A stretch of 64,000 bases of DNA from Octopus vulgaris (Eukaryota). The stretch is taken from NCBI GenBank assembly GCA_951406725.2, contig OX597817.1, positions 95,728,001 through 95,792,000 of the forward strand. Direction: 5' to 3'. A program made the translations under genes and the position numbers. The notes under the pieces were generated by a model, which did not search any database, was not told the DNA's origin, and was given only the letters and a program-made list of their open reading frames with translations. Below, piece by piece: positions 1 to 63,480 of this stretch (position 1 is the first letter of the stretch; each line of letters starts with the position of its first letter).

Positions 1-119
1 ATAGGTCTAAGTTTTAGGTCTTTTGGATGTAATAATTTTATGTACTCACTTTCTTGTTCTTTTACTGCCTGTTGAATGTTTTTTGATTTGTGTATTTTTG
101 GTAAGCCGTAGAAGTTGCT
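1..119 (-). pseudogene. Penelope-like RT N-terminal segment, inverted relative to the downstream ORF (continues off the window)
   Basis: Minus strand translates to SNFYGLPKIHKSKNIQQAVKEQESEYIKLLHPKDLKLRPI, containing the YGLPKIHK...LRPI motif of PLE reverse transcriptases. Confidence 0.85.
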
Positions 120-136
120 GGGTTTTGGTTGCTGGA

Positions 137-1216
137 TTTAGAAAGTATATTGAAAAGGCATGGAAGAGATACCTAGACGACTGTTTCATAATCTGGACAG
201 AATCTCTAAATACTCTGGAAGAGTTCAATATCCTCCTGAACAACCTACACCCATCTCTCAAATTTACAAAGGAGATGAGTAGTACCAAATTACCATTCCT
301 GGATATAATGGTAATTAAAAAAGACACCACCATCACCACAGATATATACTATAAACACACAGACACACATCAATACCTAAATTTTAAGTCGTGCCATCCA
401 CCACATACAAAACGTAACATCCCATACTGCCTAGCCAGAAGAATTTGTACTATTGTAGAAGATGCAAATATCAGGAACAAACGCCTAATAGAACTAAGAG
501 AATTTTTGCTCAAACAAAAATACCCATCTCTACTTATAGAAAATGGCATACAGCGGGCTATAAAAATACCTATACAACAACTTAGGACAACCCAAGGAAG
601 AGGAAAACAAGAACAAGTCATACCATTCATAGTGACACACAACCCATGTCACCAGAATATCTTCAACATTGCCAAAGCAAACCTACCAATCATTGCCCAA
701 AGTAATGAATTAAAAGACATAATCAAGGATCGAGCTATGGTGCTTAGTAAAAGACAGCCTAAAAACTTGAAAACATTACTAACAAAGGCAAAATTTGACC
801 TCAGCAACAAAGACCAAACATTCACGGTATCTAAATGCAATGATAGCCGATGTGGCACATGCCAATTCATACATACCGGTCAATATATAAACACAAAAAC
901 CGGGAAAATATTCACAAACGCGAATATGAACTGCAAAAGCAGAAATTTAATTTACTGCATCAAATGCCCAAATTGTGAAGAAATATATGTAGGTCAGACG
1001 GGAAACGCACTATTAGAACGCTCACGTGTACACCGGCAACAGATTAGAGACCCAGAGGTCCGTCAGATACCTTTGAGTAACCACCTAGCAACATGTGGTC
1101 GGAAAATATATATAATATTTCCATTCTACAAATTACACAGCCCAAGTGAAATCGAGAGGAAAATCAGAGAAAAGAATTTTATTGATAAATTCGAACCCAA
1201 GCTAAATAAGCAATAA
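137..1216 (+). CDS. Penelope-like element ORF, C-terminal half of RT plus GIY-YIG endonuclease (5'-truncated)
   Basis: Open frame with RYLDDCF, LPFLDI, YLNFKSCHP, Cys-rich linker CNDSRCGTC and LIYCIKCPNCEEIYVGQT...PKLN; the first ~38 aa of the track ORF are the inverted segment read antisense. Confidence 0.92.
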   Translation, partial: FRKYIEKAWKRYLDDCFIIWTESLNTLEEFNILLNNLHPSLKFTKEMSSTKLPFLDIMVIKKDTTITTDIYYKHTDTHQYLNFKSCHPPHTKRNIPYCLARRICTIVEDANIRNKRLIELREFLLKQKYPSLLIENGIQRAIKIPIQQLRTTQGRGKQEQVIPFIVTHNPCHQNIFNIAKANLPIIAQSNELKDIIKDRAMVLSKRQPKNLKTLLTKAKFDLSNKDQTFTVSKCNDSRCGTCQFIHTGQYINTKTGKIFTNANMNCKSRNLIYCIKCPNCEEIYVGQTGNALLERSRVHRQQIRDPEVRQIPLSNHLATCGRKIYIIFPFYKLHSPSEIERKIREKNFIDKFEPKLNKQ

Positions 1217-19781: not shown

Positions 19782-20971
19782 CAGAGTGCGATGGGTAAAC
19801 TATCGCCCTTTTTATTTCGAGCATGCTCATTGTTTGTTTTTGATTTTGTTGACTACACAGTATAGTAGGTCCCGTTGGGCACAGTCTGTGAGAAAAACAT
19901 CACCATGATGCAATTCACTCTGTCAGAAATTTGGAAACGACTTGCTGTACTGCTTGGCATTCGCACCGGAAGTTCCTGTACGAACATTTCAGTGTTTGGA
20001 TGTCAATCTGAGGAGTGTGCTGAGGATTCGGAAAGAGTTGGGTGATTACGAAGGTACAGCATCTCGGAAAACTCACTCTGATCGTCCTGATAAGAAAAGA
20101 ACTCCTGAATTTGTTGGTGAGATCCAGGCCTTGATTGACAACGATCCCTCTAAGTCAATCACGTCAATCGCCGGGGACATGGGAATGTCTGAGTTTCTTA
20201 TTAAGCATGAAGACATTCAGTATTCCTCATGCAAGATGAGAAAAGGCCAAATTTTATCTCAAGCCATCAAGGACAAGAGAGAAGACTGCCATACGAAGTC
20301 TTTGAACAAAATCAAGCATCCCTTCCAACCGCACATACTTTGGTTTTTCTCAGACGAGAAAAAATTCTGCCAGGATCAGATAGTGAACATACAGAACAAC
20401 CGTTGGCTTACCGTGTCCCCAAAACATGTACCGAGAGTGGGGACGTTATGCCTCCATTCATCTTCCCACACGATCTCAGACTCAACACGGTGGAGTCTTA
20501 CGTCAAGTGCCTGGAGGAAGTGGTGCTGGAAGATCCTATGTCTGGCAACAGGACTCTGCATCAAGCCACACAAGCAGAACTCAGTCATGGCTATCAGACA
20601 ATTTCTGAAACCACACCACCCCTAACATCTGGTCACATAACTCCCCAGATTGCAACCCCTTTTGATTATTATGTGTGGGGCACAGTTGACCGAGAGACCA
20701 AAAAAACTTCTTGTAACACCAAAGATGAACTGAAGGCAAGGATTATGGCAGCATTCACTAACTTAAACAAGGAGATCATCTAGAAGAGTTGCAAGAGATT
20801 CTGAAGTCGTCTGGAGACTGTGGTTGGAGCCAATGTCGATTTTATTGAATAAATTCACTCTTTAGTATTTCAAGATATTTTTATGTAATTTTGGTAAATA
20901 TATCTGTTAAAATGAGATGTCAATGTTATTGTAATTTTTGCGTAATTTAGACGACAATGTATTCACCGCAC

Positions 20972-20975
<4 letters not shown>
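19782..20975 (+). mobile_element. Tc1/mariner-superfamily element, maT/DD37D-like, decayed
   Basis: TA|CAGAGTGCG...CGCACTCTG|TA termini; FFSDEKKF, QQDSASSH and NSPDCNP.DYYVWG motifs with frameshifts. Confidence 0.8.
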
Positions 20976-21029
<54 letters not shown>

Positions 21030-21033
<4 letters not shown>

Positions 21034-21343
21034 GGTATGTAGAAAAATACAACATGGACAAGAACGTATAACTCTTAGAAGACGACACAATAAACACGGA
21101 CAGGACATTCGAAACCCTCAGTCTTCAGTCAAGAACCGGATCATCGTAGTAATTTCGGCTGATTAATCTTGAGATTACTAGATCACGGCCAGCCCTCCAA
21201 GAAAAACTAAGCAACGAGCATTAGAAAAACTAAGCTGGAAGCGTAGATTTCCTGGAAGAAGGATCGAATGCATACGAACACCAGGACAGCAAAAGGGACA
21301 GATATAAAAAAACAAAAAACAATAATGGAATACAGAAACATGA

Positions 21344-21345
<2 letters not shown>
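21030..21345 (-). mobile_element. (TA)n-flanked ~315-bp non-coding repeat (family A) carrying a permuted hammerhead
   Basis: Unique segment between long TA tracts; ribozyme-like motif; sequence downstream of the motif resembles family B. Confidence 0.6.
21113..21180 (-). ncRNA. Candidate non-circularly permuted hammerhead ribozyme (family A)
   Basis: UAGUAAU-C^UCAAGA-uuaa-UCAGCC-GAA-AUUACUA-(12 nt)-UCUUGA-CUGAAGA-CUGA-GGGUU; stem III 7 bp and stem I 6 bp perfect; stem II register ambiguous. Confidence 0.6.
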
Positions 21346-21405
<60 letters not shown>

Positions 21406-21523
21406 GCATATATGGGTACAGGACGTCACCAACGGTTCAAACAACATGAAGTACGTAAATAAGCGAGTTAAATACGTAAACAACGAGACAAATGGAGACA
21501 GGACAAGTAAACACAGACAAAGG

Positions 21524-21588
21524 ACCCTTCATCAGTTATCGCTTGTCTATCTACGACTCATTTCGAGCATTCAATGACAATATGAGTC
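21524..21588 (-). ncRNA. Candidate non-circularly permuted hammerhead ribozyme (family B, left arm, core intact)
   Basis: GACUCAU-A^UUGUCA-uugaau-GCUC-GAA-AUGAGUC-(13 nt)-CGAUAA-CUGAUGA-A-GGGU. Confidence 0.7.
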
Positions 21589-21895
21589 TTCAAAGGCAGT
21601 TGCTCCCATAAATTCTAAAATGAAATTTAGGATTTATGGAGGGTCAAAGTTGAAAGCAAAACATGACAGTGGAGACATACAAGGAATCCGAACGAAAACA
21701 AACATAGAGGCTCTTTTGAAAAAAATATTTCTCACAGCGTTCAATATTTTCCTCTCGTTCTGGTCTAACGACCCTCCATGTTTGTTTTCATTCGGTTTCC
21801 TTGTATTTCCCCGCTGTCATATTTTTGTTCCCAGCTTTGATCTTCTATAAATCCTAAATTTTATTTTAGAATTTATGGGAGCAACTGTCATTGAA

Positions 21896-21960
21896 GACTC
21901 CTATTGTCGTTGAATACTCGAAATAAGGAGTAGATAGACAGCCGACAATTGATGAAGGGT
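21896..21960 (+). ncRNA. Degenerate permuted hammerhead (family B, right arm)
   Basis: Stem I UUGUCG/CGACAA perfect and stem II ACUC/GGGU, but core reads UUGAUGA and stem III is disrupted. Confidence 0.5.
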
Positions 21961-22081
21961 CCTTTCTCTGTGTTTACTTATCCTGTTCTCCATTTTTTCT
22001 CGTTGTTTACGTATCTAACTCGTTTGTTTACATATTTCATGTTGTTTGAACCGTCGGTGACGTCCTGTACCCTTGTATGCA

Positions 22082-34657: not shown

Positions 34658-37652
34658 CAGTGCTTTTCAACCTTTTTGCTGGAGCGGAACCCCAAGGAAA
34701 TATTCCACTGGCTCGAGGAACCCCTGTGCAATAATTTAATTGTCTTATGCAAAAAAACAGCATTTAATTAATGAAATGAAAATACTCATGTTCAGATTTA
34801 TTTACAATAAAATCACAAGCTGTAAAAAAATTGTCACGTACATATGCAATTTTATTCTTACATCTACAGTTATTATTAAAACATGTATTAAAAAAAACTT
34901 TAGTTTGAATAGATTACATTTATTCTCATCAAAAAGTCAATGAGAAACTTGAGCCTGGTTTTTCTAGCACAACTCTTTAAGATTGGGTCGTGTTTTTGAT
35001 AGAAACACATGAAGTTCATCTTCCACAGACAGCAATTGTGCTCGCTTCTTGTGCTTGATAGTTGTTAGGGCTGAAAATCCAAATTCACAGAAGTAGGAGG
35101 TTGAAAACTGTACAAGAAGTCGCAGCGCTTTCTAGGCGATTGCAGGATATGCCTTTTCAACCAGCAACCAAAATGCATTCAGGTGAAGCTCAGAATGCTT
35201 CAACTTTAATGTTCTGTCATTTAAAACACTGGCAAGTTCTTCTTCTTCTGTTAATGTGAACTGTTCTTCAAATGGCTCAAATTCCACAAACGGGTTTCTA
35301 ATCCAGTCATACTGGTCAACAGATATCGATGGAAAATATTTGTCAAGATTTGTTAACAAAGTGTGCAAATGGTTCAAAATCAGTAGCGCAGTTTCTTGAC
35401 AATTCCTTATAAAAACACTTGGAAACATTTCCAAATTTCCTGCAGCTATGCGTTTCTTCCGTATTGTCAATTTCTTCTGAAAAGCATTTATTTTGTCAGT
35501 ATAAGACAAGATATTTTCGTTCCTGTCCTGCATGCCATTGTTCAAGAGGCCTAGCTCATGAAATATATCGGCAAGATATGCTAACTTGGAACACCAATGG
35601 TCATCACTCAAACATTCTACAAAGTCTTTCAGGTTTTCCTGCTAACAAAAGGTCAATAACTCTTCTCTTAATTCGTAAAAACGAGACAATACTTTTCCCC
35701 TTGACAACCATTGTATTTCTGTGTGCTAGATTAAGGTGGAATGGTCTGCTTCCATACCCACACAAATTTTTGCAAACTGTCGACATTTAAGTGGCCTCAT
35801 TTTGAAGTAATTATTTATTTTCACTACCATATCCAATGCAGATTTTAGTTCAGGTCCAAGATGTTTAGCAACTAGTGCTTCACTATGAATGAAACAATGA
35901 GTATGAATAATATTTGGATATTGTTTTTGTGCGATTGGGACAAAGCCTTTAAGACATCCTGTCATTGCAGGGGCACCATCTGTACAAATACCAACACATT
36001 TTTTCCAGTTCAATCCACAATACTCTAAGTATAAATTTAAAACATCAAATACATCTTGTCCTTTTCTTGTTTCTGGCAACTCTTTGCAACACAGGACGTC
36101 TTCTACAATAGCTTCATCATTAATAAAACGAACAGATACAAAGAGCTGTGATTTACTAGTGATGCCTGTACTCTCATCAACTTGAAGTGCAAACAACTTA
36201 TGTTTCAGTATTTTTTACTTAATATTGCACTCAATGTCTCCCGACATGTTTTGAATGCGCCTACTTATTATGTTGTCAGAAAGTGGAATTTTATTTAGCT
36301 CTGATACAGCATCCTCTCCAAACATTATCCTCACTATTTCCTGGCATGCAGTTAAAATTACAGTTTCAGCGATGGTATGAGATTTCATTTTTCTTGCAAC
36401 TATCTCTGCCACAGCATAACTTGCTTCTTGTCCTTTGTCACTCAACTTGAACTTTTTGGCAAACATAGAAACTTGCCTTTTATTAAATGCCGATTCTCTT
36501 TTAAAATATTGTTCATTTTTGCCTGACGACTCTGGATGTTTAGTCGTTAAGTGTCGTTTCAGTTTGGCTGGTGCCATAGCACTATTAGCCAGCTTCTCCC
36601 CAGAAACAGTACACAAAGGTGAAGGGCAGTCTGGCTTTTCAGTCCAAGTAAATCCCAGAGCTATGTAGTTTTCACAATATTGACGAACTTTTAGTTGCAG
36701 GTTAATTCTATCATTTCTTGGTAATTTCGACGATGCAGCATCACTGGCAGTAGCTGCAGCTTCAACAGACTGCCTCAGACCCTGCGTCTCTCCATCTGTA
36801 TCTAACTTACGTTTTTTTCAGAAATCTATCCATACTTGTAAGGCTGTAAGCAGAATTGTATATATATATAAAAGCAAACCTAATAGTGGCAGGACAAAAT
36901 GATCTTTAAAGTGTAGCGAGTTTAATGATGTAAAATTTAGCTTTTTTTATTAATGTTTTTTAGTAATAGGTATTTGATTATATTTAAACAATATGCATAT
37001 AATAATAAAATAGATTTTCGGATTTGAATTTAAAATTTTATTTATTTGTTCATTGTTCTAATTCATAAATTTGTAAGGAATTAATATTTATGCATATTTA
37101 CATATCTTATAATTTAGTGTCAGTTTCCCTATTTCTTATTTTGTTCTACATAAGTAATTCAACTCTCTTTCGAATTTTTTAATCTTAACATTTGACCAAA
37201 TATTAATAGACGTCATACAAGAAAAAGAGTTTACAAAAACGCCTTTTAAAAAGCTAAAGATCTTTTAAAAAGCATATTAACAACAACACCTAAATGGCTT
37301 ATGCAGTTAAAACGTTTCTTTCAAATATAGTCACTCGTATTTTACAAAAGAAACTAAACCATCATCTAAGCTGGCATGCAACTCGTAGATGTGCACGTAC
37401 ATGTACACACCAAGGATCAGGGTCATCTACGCTGGCGAGTAACTCGTAGTTGTACACGTCGTAGGCCTACATATACACACCAAGGATCAGGGTCATCTAC
37501 GCTGGCGTGCAAATCGTAGATGTACACATAGGCCTAACATGTACACACATATCTGCACAGGAGAATTAAAAATTACTGTCGAGTTTAGCATTTATGTAGC
37601 TTCTTGCGGAACCCCTGGACTGTACTGGCGGAACCCTGGCTGAAAACCACTG
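34658..37652 (-). mobile_element. hAT-Buster DNA transposon, full length
   Basis: TIRs CAGTGCTTTTCAACC / GGCTGAAAACCACTG; perfect 8-bp TSD CTCTAGAT with central TA; subterminal tandem repeats at ~37365-37530. Confidence 0.95.
34937..36833 (-). pseudogene. Buster-family transposase (frameshifted)
   Basis: KLKRHLTTKH (BED finger), FALQVDEST, CTDGAPAM, HCFIH, LAYLADIF, WIRNPF and C-terminal QAQVSH*. Confidence 0.9.
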
Positions 37653-56076: not shown

Positions 56077-57367
56077 CGAGGGGCGTTCAATAAGTAATGC
56101 CCCTGACCCACTTCCCATACCAGTAGAGCAACGGAACTTGGCACAGTTATTGGTCTTTTTCTACATAGGAACCACTCAGAGTTACGCATTTCTCCCATCG
56201 TTTGATCCAGCTCTGGAGACCGTTTTTGTAAAAGACCCCAGCTTGGTCCTCCATCCACGACGTGACTTTAGAAATCAAGGCTGCATCATCTGGAAAATGC
56301 TTTCCTTTCAAAAACAATTTCATGGCTGGGAAGAGGTGAAAATCAGAGGGTGCAAGGTCAGGAGAGTAGGGGGTGGGGGAGGAGTTCATAGCCGCACGCC
56401 TGTGCTTCTGATCTGGCGACACGCGAGTTGTGGACCGGAGCGTTGTCCTGCAGGAGGAGGATGCCTTCGCTGATCTTGCCCCGCCTCTTGATTTTGATAG
56501 CTTCTCTTAATTTCCTCAAAAGTGAAGCATAATAGGCTCCTGTAATTGTGGTACTCTTTGCCAGGAAATCTATCATCACTACTCCGTCCTGGTCCCAGAA
56601 GACTGTGAGCATGACCTTGCCAGCAGAGGGCTGCACCCTTGCCTTCTTTGGAGGAGGTGAGTCACGGTGCTTCCGCTGCATTGACTGGGCTTTGGTCTCT
56701 GGATCATAGTGATGGACCCAGGTTTCATCCTGTGTAATCAGTCTTTTGAAAAAGTTTGACTCATCTTCTTGGTACGTCTCCAAATTCATCCTCGAGCACT
56801 CAACGCGTTCTTGCTTCTGGAAAGGTGTGAGCAACCTGGGAATCCATGTGGCAGACACCTTTTGCATATGCAAATGGTCATGAATGATAGTTTCCACTGA
56901 CCCGGTACTAATCTTGACCTCATGGGCTATTTGGCGAATAGTTATGCGTCGATCTTCCAAAATGGCAGCCTCAACTTGACGGACAGATGCCTCATCAATG
57001 GCAGAAGGTGGTCGACCAGATCTGGGAGCTGTTTCCACAGAGTTCCGACCATGTTTGAATTCACAATGCCAGCGTTTTACAAGGTCATATGATGGGGCAT
57101 CATCACCATAAGTTACTTTCATTTCATCAAAAGTCTCCCGTGGTGTGCGTCCTTTCAAATACAAAAACCAGACCACTGCTCGACACTCAACAGGCTCCAT
57201 TTCACACTTGACTCAGTTCAAACACCTGTAAATCAGAAACCACAATTAGTTCAGAGCTGTAATTTGCCACTTAATATATAGAGATATAAATAATTGCACA
57301 TGCAAAATTTCAACTAGATCACACACCTGGAAGTGGTTCAGAGGCATTACTTATTGAACGTCCCTCG
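56077..57367 (-). mobile_element. Full-length mariner transposon
   Basis: TA|CGAGGGGCGTTCAATAAGTAATGCC ... GGCATTACTTATTGAACGTCCCTCG|TA. Confidence 0.95.
56147..57200 (-). pseudogene. Mariner DD34D transposase with one frameshift near 56370
   Basis: WIPRLL, TQDETW, LQDNAP and YSPDLAPSDFHLF in two overlapping frames. Confidence 0.92.
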
Positions 57368-58849: not shown

Positions 58850-61800
58850 ACGTTTCATTTATGAAGACGTACCCATGTATTTAAGTGATGGCTCCATTGG
58901 ATACTTAGACAAAATGCAGATGTCAGTTCCCCCAAGTGTGCCGCCATATTGGTCTTTGACATGTTGATAGTGTATGGAGAATTGTTTCTTGTCATTATAT
59001 TATCTCGAGTGTCCATTTAGTCGTGTCCCCTATACTCCTAGAAGTCGTGTTTTTGTCCTTACAAACTCCTTCTATGCACCATATGCTGTAGACTACGTTT
59101 CTAGTTTTACAGTTAATACCAGGGTTAATCTTACATACTACAAAGATCTCATTAGTGCATGTGGTATTCTCAAAGATCTCATTAGTGCATGTGGTATGTC
59201 CTACATAATTGTGATCTGATGGGGCTCCCTGGCTTCTCAACAATTTTAATGTTGAGTTGGGTGCCGTTCATAGCCTTCCTAAATCTACTGCTAATTCCCA
59301 TGAGGTATGGCCTCTACAAACGTCACTCCACTAAGTTCGTTGAGAAGCCAGGGAGCTCATGTTTCTTGTCAACCGAAACTAGTGTACCTTGGAAGCATCC
59401 GTTTCGCAAGTGGAGACCACACCCGTTCACCATCGAGGAGAAGCCAGAGGTGCCTCAACTTCAGCGAATGCTTGTGCATCAACAGCCAAGACATCCTTAG
59501 TTCTCCTTTCAATGGCTTCTGACAAGTGGAGTCGAGCCCTTCCACAAAAAGCGGAAGATCTGTCTCTCCAACTTGCTCAACCACGAATCAGGACAGGAAA
59601 CGACGTTTAAACTGTAAATAATGACCAATGCGATAAACAAACACATTGGCCACCTCCACCCTCCTTTTCAAGGATAGCCACTGCCAAGATCAGGTCTTGA
59701 TTATGAGGGTCACCTTGCTCGATACCTCTGCCCAGTTCTTTTCTACCTGTAGGTCTGGGTCAAACCAGACTCCTAGCAATTTAACCGGACCCTCCATCCA
59801 ACGTCCCACGATGCTATTAGAAGGCACCGACTTGCCCCTCCAGGTGCCGAGTTGCAAGCCGACTGATTTTTCCCGGTTAATCTCTGCTCCTGCCACCGTC
59901 TCGTAAACCTCAATGGTTTCGCCTACCCTATGTAGGTGTTCCATCTTGGTCACGATGATGGTGATGTCGTCCGCGTATGCTGAGACCGATTCTCCGTCAA
60001 CTGGTTCCCTCGGGATGCCACACAACTTTCGCAGTAACGGCTCCAGAGCCATTACATACAGAATCAGTTAGAGTGAACATCCTTGGCGAACCGAGTGCAT
60101 GATACAGAACGGCTTAGAAAGAAAGCAGTTCACCCGAACGATCGAATCGATGTCATATAACTGTGTGATCCACCTGAGGAAGCCAAGACTGAGCCCGAAC
60201 TGCGCGATAACGGACACCAGGTAGCGATGGTCAACCCTATCGAATGCTTTAGATTGGTCTAACTGGACCAGAGCCCCACCCTTGACAGAATCATTACCTT
60301 CTAAGGTGTAATGTATAAGATGGAGATTATCCTGGATGCTTCTGCCGGAGACAGTACAAGTCTGTGTCTTGCCGATTAGACCATCCGCGACAAGCACCAA
60401 TCTTTTTGCTAGCACCTTGGCCAAAATCTTCAACTCTGTATTTAACAGAGTGATGGGCCTAAAATTATCTATTCTATCCCCCTTGTCCAGTTCCTTTCTG
60501 ACCAGAGTCATCACTCCCCGGCGCACAGACATGACAATCATTCCGTTCTGCTGCCAGTTCGTATAAAACCCGGCCAGTAGGTGCCCGAACACGTCTGGCA
60601 AACTTTTATATAATTCGTAAGGTAGACCATCAAGACCCGGCGCCCTACCAACGCCGCAACCTGCTATAGCCTCTATCACTTCCTCAGATGTGATCGACCC
60701 TTCACAGCACTCCGCATCCCGCCTCGAGAGATGCGGCAGCCCAGCGAGGAAGTCCGTAAGATCCAACCTACTATTCGGTCCATCGCTCCCCACGAAAAGC
60801 TGGGCGAAATGCTCCTGAATAGTCTTACACATCTCCTCGGGTTCATTTATCAACTCACCTTGTAGGTTCTCCACATATCGAACTGTAGAATTATTTCCAC
60901 GTTGGGCTTCCACCACTCGGGCCCATCCAGCGGTCTGATCCTCTCGCAGCTCATTGCACGAAGTCTAGCCTTGACAATATACCCCATGTGCTTGGCTTCG
61001 AGGTGCTGGTTTAGTTCCAGTCTCTTCACCTTCATCTTAGATGCACAGCCAGCCACCATGCCTTCTTCTAGAGCCTTACCTAGTTCTTCTTCCCTCCTAC
61101 GTTCTCTAGCCACTAAATCTATTCTATATCATCTAATAGTCTCAAATTTAATGGCTCTTTTGCGGGCATACTACAATTTCTTGTTAATAATGGTATCTGT
61201 CAATGCCCTCTGTATCAACAACTTAATCTTGTTCCTGTACTCTTCAATCGCCAAAAGGGACTTGTTGAGTTTCCAATAGCCGGAGCTTTTACCAAGTAAC
61301 TTATCTAGGTTCAGCTAACAAGTGACAAACTTGTGATCACTGTAGCTGACCGGGTGAAACTGTGGACACTTAGCTACGTCCTTGTATATTTTTCTAATTA
61401 GGATCCTATATATGTACGACCCTGAAGACCCGTCGCCACTTAACCACGTCCACAATGGGGCATTCAAGAATTCTAGTCTGTATGGATCTACTAGCTGAAA
61501 GCGACTTAGTAGATCTCGGAAGCCAGGATGCGATCTCCTATTCGTACTCGAGCCAACACTATCCATGCGTGCATCGTGAATAGTGAAAAGTCTCCTAACA
61601 AGACTAACGGATGCGTGTACCAAGAAACTTCTCTAGGTCTCTAAAATACTCAGTCATCCAGAATTGGGGGCGTAAATTGCCACCAGTTTGATTTTCTTAC
61701 CATAACTGAAAGTCAAATCTAAGACGACCAGCCTACCTTCTGGGTCAGCAAAAATCCATCTTTTCTCTGAAACCCGGTTTCTTTTTAGTAGGACCAACAT

Positions 61801-63480
61801 CCCACCTCCGCCAGCAGGCCTGTCTGGAGAAGTAAATTTCTCGTAACTGTCCAGCAGCGGGAGCAGACCTCTTGGTCCTTTTAACCATATTTCAGTAGGA
61901 ACAATAACGTCTAACTTTCTTGACCTAACATCATTTAAGAAATGCCCTTGTTTCCAACTTGACGTCAGGCCACGCACATTTAAACATCCTACGTGAACAG
62001 CCATAAATCTTACCTTAGTTAATCAGATAGTTCATCGCTTTGAGGCGGAAGTGGGGAATCCGCCTCCTTTTCTTTTTCTCGGTCTCGTGGAGTTGGAGTG
62101 TGTATGCCCTCGTACATTTGAGGTGATATATCCCATGTCAAAGGGCCTACATCATCTCTAAAGTCATTTACAAATATATTATAAGTTTTTCGATCAACCT
62201 TGTATATCTCACACCTGTCTCTCACATCTTCGTTCTCTATTTTTTAAATATTTTTTATACATTCCAGGCGCTTTACCAGCCTCCTTTGAGAAACTCTCAC
62301 CGCCATATACAATTCCTCCTATTTTTTCTGGCTTTTTCACCTTTTTTACAGTTTCTTGGGTCTTTTCTGGGGAGGTTGGTTTCATTTTTCTTTTGTTTTT
62401 TACGATTGCCCAGTCCTCCCCTTCTTTGTTATTCTTTGGCGCTCTGCTTTTTGTTCTTCTGCTTTGTTTTCTTCTTTCTCACCTTCCTCTTCTTTTCCTT
62501 CCTGGGAGGTTTTACATTCTGACCTAATGTGGCCTTTCATGCCACACTTCCAGGGTTAGTGTCTCCGCTTGAATCAACATCTTCACTGTTTGACTCGTCC
62601 ATTTCTTTTCTTCTTTAACTTTTGCTAATAACAGCGTTATTTTCTCTTCCAAATCCAGCATTATTGCCGCTACTAGCCATTCAGCATTGACCTCCGGCGG
62701 TATATTGCCAATTTTAATCCTCGAGGTTCTCCTCCCCATGTATATGGGCATGAGTACCACCTCCTCCGTTCTCAATGGTTCGACTGAGTGAAGTTTTGTT
62801 TTCTCGGCCGACTCCATCCTCACATCAATGGTTGCATATCTTTTTCCTCTCGTTAAGTGTTTGATCTCTCTCCATATGGGCTTCAAACATTTTTCTATAT
62901 ATTTTTCTTGAACATATTCTATTTTTCTCTTTTACATTACATGATTTGTATATAATCGTCTTTTGCAACATATCTGTTGCAATATCTTGTGGAGGGACCA
63001 CTTTAATTTCGGTCCCCTCCCTTGACAATAAATTCCTATGTTCCTTCAACTTTTCAGTGTTAATTCTTTTTGTCTTGCTCCCGGCTGCTGCCGCAAAGTT
63101 CATCTCTATTGTATTACTTTGCGCTTCACCAGTTGCAAGACTAAGTACTGCTATGTTCTTCCTTACAATTCGTAACTAAAGCATTTCCATTCTAGATGTT
63201 TTAGTTGTACTAGGCTCATGCTGGTTGTTCTTCGGTGAGTCTTCCCTTTGGCACTTCTTCGGTGAGTTTTGGTTTGGAGAGCCGCTCTCCAAAGACAATC
63301 ATTTTGGTGTATTTACTTGTTTCATTTCAAAATGGCAACACACAAAAATTCGCGCAGAAAATTATTATAAACAACAATTTGCTTTACAATAAAGCAATAA
63401 ACGCTTCTCTTTTTAAAACAAATATCAACAACAACAACAATTTTCTCACCTTCAGTAATAACACAACCAAACAATGTTCT
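58850..63480 (-). mobile_element. Near full-length Tx1/L1-clade LINE, decayed (ORF1, APE endonuclease, RT)
   Basis: ORF1 pieces 62019-63180; CLNVRGL...AIYAPN...SDHKFV; APGLDGLPYE, FRPITLLNTELKILAK, LDQSKAFDRVDH, VRQGC, AYADDITI; ends approximate. Confidence 0.88.

Follow-up and report, generated by a model that had tools for sequence, protein, structure and literature searches.

Three repeat copies in a 64,000-nucleotide stretch of Octopus vulgaris DNA (contig OX597817.1, positions 95,728,001 to 95,792,000; hereafter the window) are probably truncated, non-coding repeats of Penelope-like elements (PLEs). For their RNA, a hammerhead fold with a split core is predicted, and the RNA is likely to cut itself after an NUH triplet. 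The motif is likely a hammerhead in its working, not one of type SGC, and a new structural variant in PLE-type repeats, with its cleavage presumed. In the proposed wiring, the strands would follow one another in the order IV - hairpin V - II' - P4 - [III-UH-I] - [II-GAAA-III'] - P4' - [I'-CUGANGA] - IV'. A9 would thus not be joined to G10.1, and the core would be split inside block C. Helix IV and hairpin V would tie the two free ends so that the usual core forms. The split motif may be the ribozyme thought to be missing from Naiad retrotransposons.

Repeat families in (TA)n runs

The three copies lie between (TA)n runs. The family A copy (21030..21345, minus strand) is a 5'-truncated piece of a young non-coding tandem unit of ~845-863 bp, with 1,282 exact 35-mer matches (control 0). 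The (TA)n run at 20978..21030 is the target at its 3' end, and a second run at 21346..21402 separates it from B1, a copy of family B (21410..21720, minus strand). Another copy of family B, B2 (21745..22075, plus strand), is inverted relative to B1 and 86% identical to it. The initial annotation described elements of about 300 bp, which turn out to be truncated pieces of head-to-tail units of 0.7-0.86 kb. Its proposal of a PLE-pLTR- or retrozyme-like host that targets (TA)n agrees with the tandem non-coding units found in such runs.

Family A is young: 40/40 scored matches are ~100% identical, often at the unit spacing of ~843-864 bp. Its 3' end is fixed ~144 nt after the predicted cut, and its 5' ends vary. 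Family B is older, with 87-90% identity between copies. Families A, B and C (a third family) consist of pyrimidine-rich units set head to tail, with one ribozyme motif per unit and no linked coding frame. As is typical of PLE insertions, the copies end at a fixed 3' position, are truncated to varying extents on the 5' side, form partial tandems, include inverted copies at the 5' end and sit in a microsatellite. Longer copies might have been expected to adjoin PLE ORFs; none is attached at the A, B or C loci. At six loci with tblastn matches, inspected in part, no continuity was found between the ORF and an A, B or C unit. A PLE ORF lying 0.6 kb upstream of a family C copy was considered as a partner and rejected as a separate insertion, with (TA)n between the two. 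With regard to the circular monomer RNAs of retrozymes, a contig of unit length (869 nt) occurs in one sequencing run, which is only guessed to be RNA.

Different families of this kind stand back to back in one (TA)n run, like A and B, at loci L132, L069, L118, L065, L078 and L147. A CACGTGA palindrome is found in the pyrimidine-rich body of several unrelated unit families (L002, L293, L118, L071, L124); it is present in 6 of the 9 loci checked and lies outside the unit in L327. Elsewhere in the window, positions 11-1213 (plus strand) carry the 3' part of a PLE ORF (RT thumb, GIY-YIG), and no hammerhead was recognised in the 750 nt that follow. A canonical minimal type-I hammerhead-like motif from another PLE family is located at ~12063 (minus strand), and motifs of the same kind occur in L038, L058 and L188. 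The segments at 19909-20978, 35135-36817, 56361-57212 and 59693-62931 are presumably Tc1/mariner-like, hAT-like and LINE-like remnants.

Block order and core of the motif

The initial annotation reported three motifs with the hammerhead blocks in a non-circular order. Core letters and the S-G-C order are recognisable in A, B1 and B2; the letters CUGANGA, GAAA and UH are intact in A and B1, and B2 is decayed (C3 changed to U, stem III broken, a mismatch in stem II; U16.1 at 21902). In A, read on the minus strand, block S (21167..21180) consists of a stem III strand, an AUC triplet with the predicted cut at 21173^21172 and a stem I strand, and block G (21147..21162) of the 11.x strand, GAAA and the stem III' strand. 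The segment at 21122..21145 contains the 3' strand of P4, stem I' and CUGAAGA. The core letters are U16.1 at 21174, GAAA at 21156-21153 and CUGAAGA at 21128-21122. Their counterparts in B1 (minus strand) are U16.1 at 21582, GAAA at 21564-21561 and CUGAUGA at 21535-21529, with the predicted cut at 21581^21580. Stems I and III, which flank the cut and include A15.1-U16.1, are as originally drawn, except that the 7-bp stem III given for family B results from a private deletion in B1, most copies having 5 bp.

The order exceeds chance, as had been claimed. An SGC descriptor gives one strict and two relaxed matches in the window, whereas 40 shuffled versions average 0 and 0.05. A corrected descriptor, in which stem II is placed upstream, finds two matches (A and B1) and none in 50 shuffles; B2 does not fit it. 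Pattern searches covered the 2.8-Gb assembly (227 contigs). The spacing pattern, which represents the geometry common to A and B and was built to leave out both families, has 2,268 matches from many families genome-wide against 279 in the reversed control; it imposes the core letters and favours copies truncated into TA runs. Neither descriptor fits any of 120 viral loci that share this core spacing. From the fetched loci, 98 motif rows were taken, which represent many families with differing stem sequences; 10 of the first 100 pattern matches came from one (TA)n-truncated family, and only one of these was included. Intact copies mostly have C or A at H17, and the U at position 1.1, which the pattern did not demand, is 94% conserved. 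The expectation that standard searches would miss the motif was borne out, with no hammerhead family from Rfam among the window matches listed (150 of 160) or in four motif loci. The octopus units were also considered as carriers of type I hammerheads, and the Rfam and descriptor results show otherwise.

Position of stem II

Stem II had been drawn between the GAAA side and the strand that adjoins CUGANGA. Across 62 aligned copies, chosen from the 98 rows by upstream homology and not by pairing, this helix is 24% paired in register, and 431/500 shuffles are as high. Short adjacent pairings do exist in A and B. The one in A needs a 2-nt bulge before GAAA, and its duplex is predicted at -2.0 kcal/mol, compared to -8.3 kcal/mol with an upstream partner; in B, two of the four pairs are G-U, and the values are -1.5 and -5.4 kcal/mol. 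The GAAA-side strand forms at least four Watson-Crick pairs with an upstream strand in 35/98 rows and with the strand after CUGANGA in 1/98. The upstream strand sits 18-26 nt 5' of the cut (at offset -20 in 18 of the 35 rows), and its 35 rows include 24 distinct strand pairs and compare to a mean of 10 and a maximum of 18 in a swap control. In A, this 10.x strand, GGCUG, is located at 21189..21194, and in B1 it is located at 21605-21601 (both minus strand).

The covariation check that the initial annotation had called for was made in the same 62-copy alignment, in which stem I is 89% paired, stem III 87%, P4 69% and upstream stem II 65%. Together, these four helices show 306 double changes, a count inflated by kinship among copies; none of 500 shuffles matches them, and slid registers give 22-46%. 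Upstream stem II, the helix next to G12, has 58 double changes by itself, which 0/500 shuffles equal, and the G10.1-C11.1 pair is found in 37/62 copies. Both the 65% and the 37/62 are partly due to decay and to a 1-nt register shift in some families. Covariation across families thus argues, at the level of sequence, for stems I, II, III and P4. A covariation scan at fixed offsets recovered stems I and III and missed stem II because the offsets vary; its rows had been pre-selected on stems I or III, so no support for those two stems is taken from it.

The adjacent helix does better with one extra base, a feature that De la Pena and Flores are said to have described at the 9/10.1 junction in 2001. 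In this form it is 42% paired (0/500 shuffles), with 14 double changes that 23/500 shuffles reach. This small signal is probably due to the purine-rich helix IV strand. In an unrelated family from a metagenome, the adjacent stem II has 0-1 bp in 19/19 core-bearing copies; the long copies of that family were selected by the II' motif, which makes their upstream pairing circular. Type SGC is defined by a stem II that begins within 1-2 nt of CUGANGA; here stem II is not made by the sequence following CUGANGA, so the motif falls outside that type.

P4, helix IV and hairpin V

P4 links the strand after II' with the strand before I' and thus bridges the distal ends of stems I and II, where type SGC has its I-II helix. 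In A, its 5' strand at 21181..21188 pairs with 21145-21136 (minus strand). Double changes occur in 6/6 of its pairs. With P4 in the I-II position of SGC and stem II upstream, the wiring corresponds to the cyclic order of SGC and CSG with its opening at A9/G10.1.

In A, a predicted hairpin V (21195..21257, minus strand, -21.6 kcal/mol) adjoins the stem II partner, and the hairpin abuts II' in 35/39 folds. A hairpin V at or below -5 kcal/mol is found in 29/37 rows against 18/38 in the control, a weak separation, as stable hairpins are common in control sequence. The predicted helix IV of A pairs its 5' strand at 21258..21270 with 21119-21106; the 3' strand (21106..21119, minus strand) follows A9 directly and contains a conserved CGAAU, whose conservation 3' of the core helix IV explains. 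In B1, the minus-strand positions are 21645-21640 with 21528-21523 for helix IV and 21639-21606 for hairpin V. The strand after A9 pairs next to hairpin V in 21/37 rows, compared to a mean of 3.0 (maximum 9) in shuffles and 11 (maximum 17) in swaps; this stricter row test replaced a free-folding test that was too loose, its controls giving 18-28 of 39. All helices can form inside a single unit, with stems of 5-7 bp.

5' ends at the predicted cut

Tandem transcripts would be cut to give RNAs with a defined 5' end, and these would be copied in trans, from their fixed 3' end into (TA)n, by the reverse transcriptase of a PLE. Many insertions should therefore begin at or just after the cut. As the spacing pattern is biased towards TA-truncated copies, copies for end mapping were gathered by anchors 3' of the site, which leaves the upstream sequence unselected. 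For family A, 79 arrays found by BLAST became 78 after correction by eye, which concerned one mis-picked array, three shifted ones and a duplicate flank that was dropped. The start falls 0 to +16 after the predicted cut in 37/78 arrays, exactly at 0 in six, and in the preceding 17 nt in one. By eye, starts after and before the site number 8 and 1 in family B (n=30) and 9 and 0 in family C (n=30), and the step pooled over A, B and C has p ~4e-14. A uniform automated end-caller gives 33 after and 5 before for A, and 9 and 5 for B; its extra upstream calls are mostly long copies with indels or TA micro-matches.

The metagenome family, found with the coral Naiad consensus motif and coming mostly from one assembly among the rows listed, has 113 mapped starts. 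Of these, 65 are located at 0 to +10, nine at -2 to -1, four at -13 to -3 and eight at -42 to -14; 27 copies are longer. The 5'-end step is thus seen at the predicted site in four families of differing sequence. The frequent starts directly at the predicted cut are indirect evidence that the RNA likely cuts itself in vivo; most simply, a large part of the templates is likely the 3' product of this presumed cleavage. An internal start site is a possible alternative source of the 5' ends.

None of the sequencing runs that contain the repeats is registered as RNA. In their contigs, depth rises 3' of the site, although it sums related families, and contigs of 31-32 nt that end near the site fit transcribed truncated copies; neither observation is counted towards cleavage. 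A loose end at window position 21052 in one run matches a template-switching adapter and presumably indicates a cDNA library that contains family A.

Relation to Naiad elements

In the part of Craig et al. 2021 (PMC8557442) available to us, no canonical hammerhead is reported for Naiads, and their 3' ends are flagged 'HHR_half_core' or 'HHR_core'. The supplement of that paper gives 52 consensus ends of ~350 nt each, which were read by eye. Split wiring was recognised in eight of them (Obim, Ovul, Esco, Amil, Aacu, Anas, 2_Movir and Bfor), with one mismatch in Esco and a very short stem I in Bfor; the hosts are octopus, squid, three corals, box jelly and a ctenophore. Six nematode ends (Naiad-1/-2/-3_Nbra, Hcon, Hpol, Asuum) appear by eye to be of type CSG with a long I-II helix. 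These nematode hammerheads are clean, and type CSG was previously known, as far as the accessible literature goes, from two metagenome sequences only. The remaining ends have neither wiring within the ~350 nt displayed. Several oyster, other bivalve, hemichordate and hydrozoan Naiads without a visible hammerhead carry a conserved G/C-rich motif of ~60 nt near the 3' end in these consensus sequences, which is a candidate for another structured RNA or ribozyme.

A Naiad-type motif has 145 matches in the O. vulgaris genome and none in the control; 7/12 of its loci fit the corrected descriptor, and 6 of the 10 best matches for a Naiad-type RT C-terminus are followed downstream by the motif. The Naiad label here is a by-eye match to a published consensus, Pfam having no match for a 78-aa piece. 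Naiads in this genome are broken remnants with a longest open frame of 263 aa; family A is young. In families A and B, no ORF with N-terminal GIY-YIG and C-terminal RT was found upstream of the motif. The two families share the fold and have no such ORF, and thus they cannot be filed as Naiads. The shared fold alone suggests that their motif may descend from the 3' ribozyme of Naiad PLEs.

The enzyme that mobilises A and B could be supplied in trans. At 30 GIY-YIG loci, no split motif was found within 1.5 kb, including those of an intact family with a 781-aa frame and C-terminal GIY-YIG, whose protein is a possible trans-acting enzyme. This PLE family is young and has many matches with the 781-aa frame; a copy at L280:2745-5087 (plus strand) combines RT and C-terminal GIY-YIG with pLTRs and a 359-aa frame further upstream. 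Only a degenerate type-I-like core is seen at the 3' end of the family.

Discussion

In the most far-reaching reading, the motif would be a natural hammerhead opened at A9/G10.1 and rebuilt as a five-helix junction. It would represent an ancient Naiad ribozyme, found from ctenophores and corals to cephalopods, with the related CSG order in nematodes; it would be active in vivo, and its cut would fix where about half of the young insertions begin. This reading is reasonably probable.

The octopus motif shares with type SGC (HRIMA-1 and variants; Eckert et al. 2023, PMC10085705, in the sections available) the S-G-C order, the full core, a short linker between stems I and II and a helix that connects their far ends; the suspicion that its non-circular order had been published before was thus correct. 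In the account given there, type SGC is known from metatranscriptomes only and not from genomes of known organisms, and block C is assumed to be indivisible, with CUGANGA staying joined to stems I and II. In type SGC, CUGANGA runs straight into stem II, whereas in the octopus motif A9 leads into helix IV and the 10.x strand is placed upstream of the cut. The octopus motif is also found in an animal genome, with thousands of pattern matches. Hammerhead core variants and insertions are known from the accessible part of PMC3088659. The closest parallel for the replacement of helix II by a strand from elsewhere is the pseudoknot-containing (PK) hammerhead, which is reported as fully active (Zhan et al. 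2024, PMC11300833, available part). There, A9-G12 is one strand in a circular order; the octopus motif has a non-circular order and no direct link from A9 to G10.1. In the literature searched, where subscription journals are thinly covered, we found no description of a hammerhead split at A9/G10.1 and no report of animal genomes or Naiads that contain non-circular hammerheads.

The host elements resemble Naiads, as far as these are described in the consulted part of PMC8557442: both target (TA)n, are truncated at the 5' end and occur as partial tandems and inverted copies. Similar to the non-LTR retrozymes and PLE pLTR hammerheads in the available texts of PMC7229834, PMC4209133 and bioRxiv 10.64898/2026.07.22.740005, they are non-coding head-to-tail units with one ribozyme each and, like non-LTR retrozymes, are likely non-autonomous PLE derivatives. 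Unlike those elements, which have type I hammerheads in units of 150-450 bp, the octopus units have the split non-circular form and are 0.7-0.86 kb long.

Three other readings have to be weighed. The fold might be a conserved, hammerhead-derived structure that binds the PLE protein and no longer cuts, with the 5' ends coming from an internal start of transcription or an RT stop. The hammerhead of the anole Poseidon element, as described in the accessible part of PMC11167929, needed protein, was dispensable for insertion in vitro, where ribozyme mutants still inserted, and had no RNA reads ending at its site; in addition, a break at A9/G10.1 is outside what the available sections of Eckert 2023 (PMC10085705) took as possible. 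Against loss of cutting, the 5'-end step falls at the predicted site in all four families, and H17 and U1.1 have kept their identities; an RT stop would be expected to stall at the 3' edge of the structure and not inside it. We therefore consider a non-cutting fold unlikely. Alternatively, the same fold might need the PLE protein, or a partner unit in the tandem transcript, to assemble its split core. Cleavage of the Poseidon hammerhead is protein-assisted (PMC11167929, same part), minimal PLE hammerheads have weak activity and work as dimers according to the consulted sections of PMC4209133, and the octopus units do occur in tandem. Unlike minimal PLE hammerheads, they can form every helix within one unit, with stems of 5-7 bp, which makes such dependence quite improbable. 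That these are type-SGC hammerheads of the usual kind, in which CUGANGA is followed at once by stem II, as first drawn, is very improbable, since the adjacent duplexes are much weaker than the upstream ones and nearly absent from both the 98 rows and the metagenome copies.

If this far-reaching reading is right, it would overturn two statements, that Naiads lack hammerheads and that block C cannot be split. Its wiring falls outside the six permutations considered in print and brings non-circular hammerheads into animal genomes. The open A9/G10.1 junction offers a new attachment point for domains in engineered ribozymes. With insertion starts piling up at the cut, an in vivo role of PLE ribozymes becomes directly testable, which is of interest given that the Poseidon cut is dispensable in vitro. 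For the Naiads, a very abundant clade, the split motif offers an answer to the apparent absence of a ribozyme.
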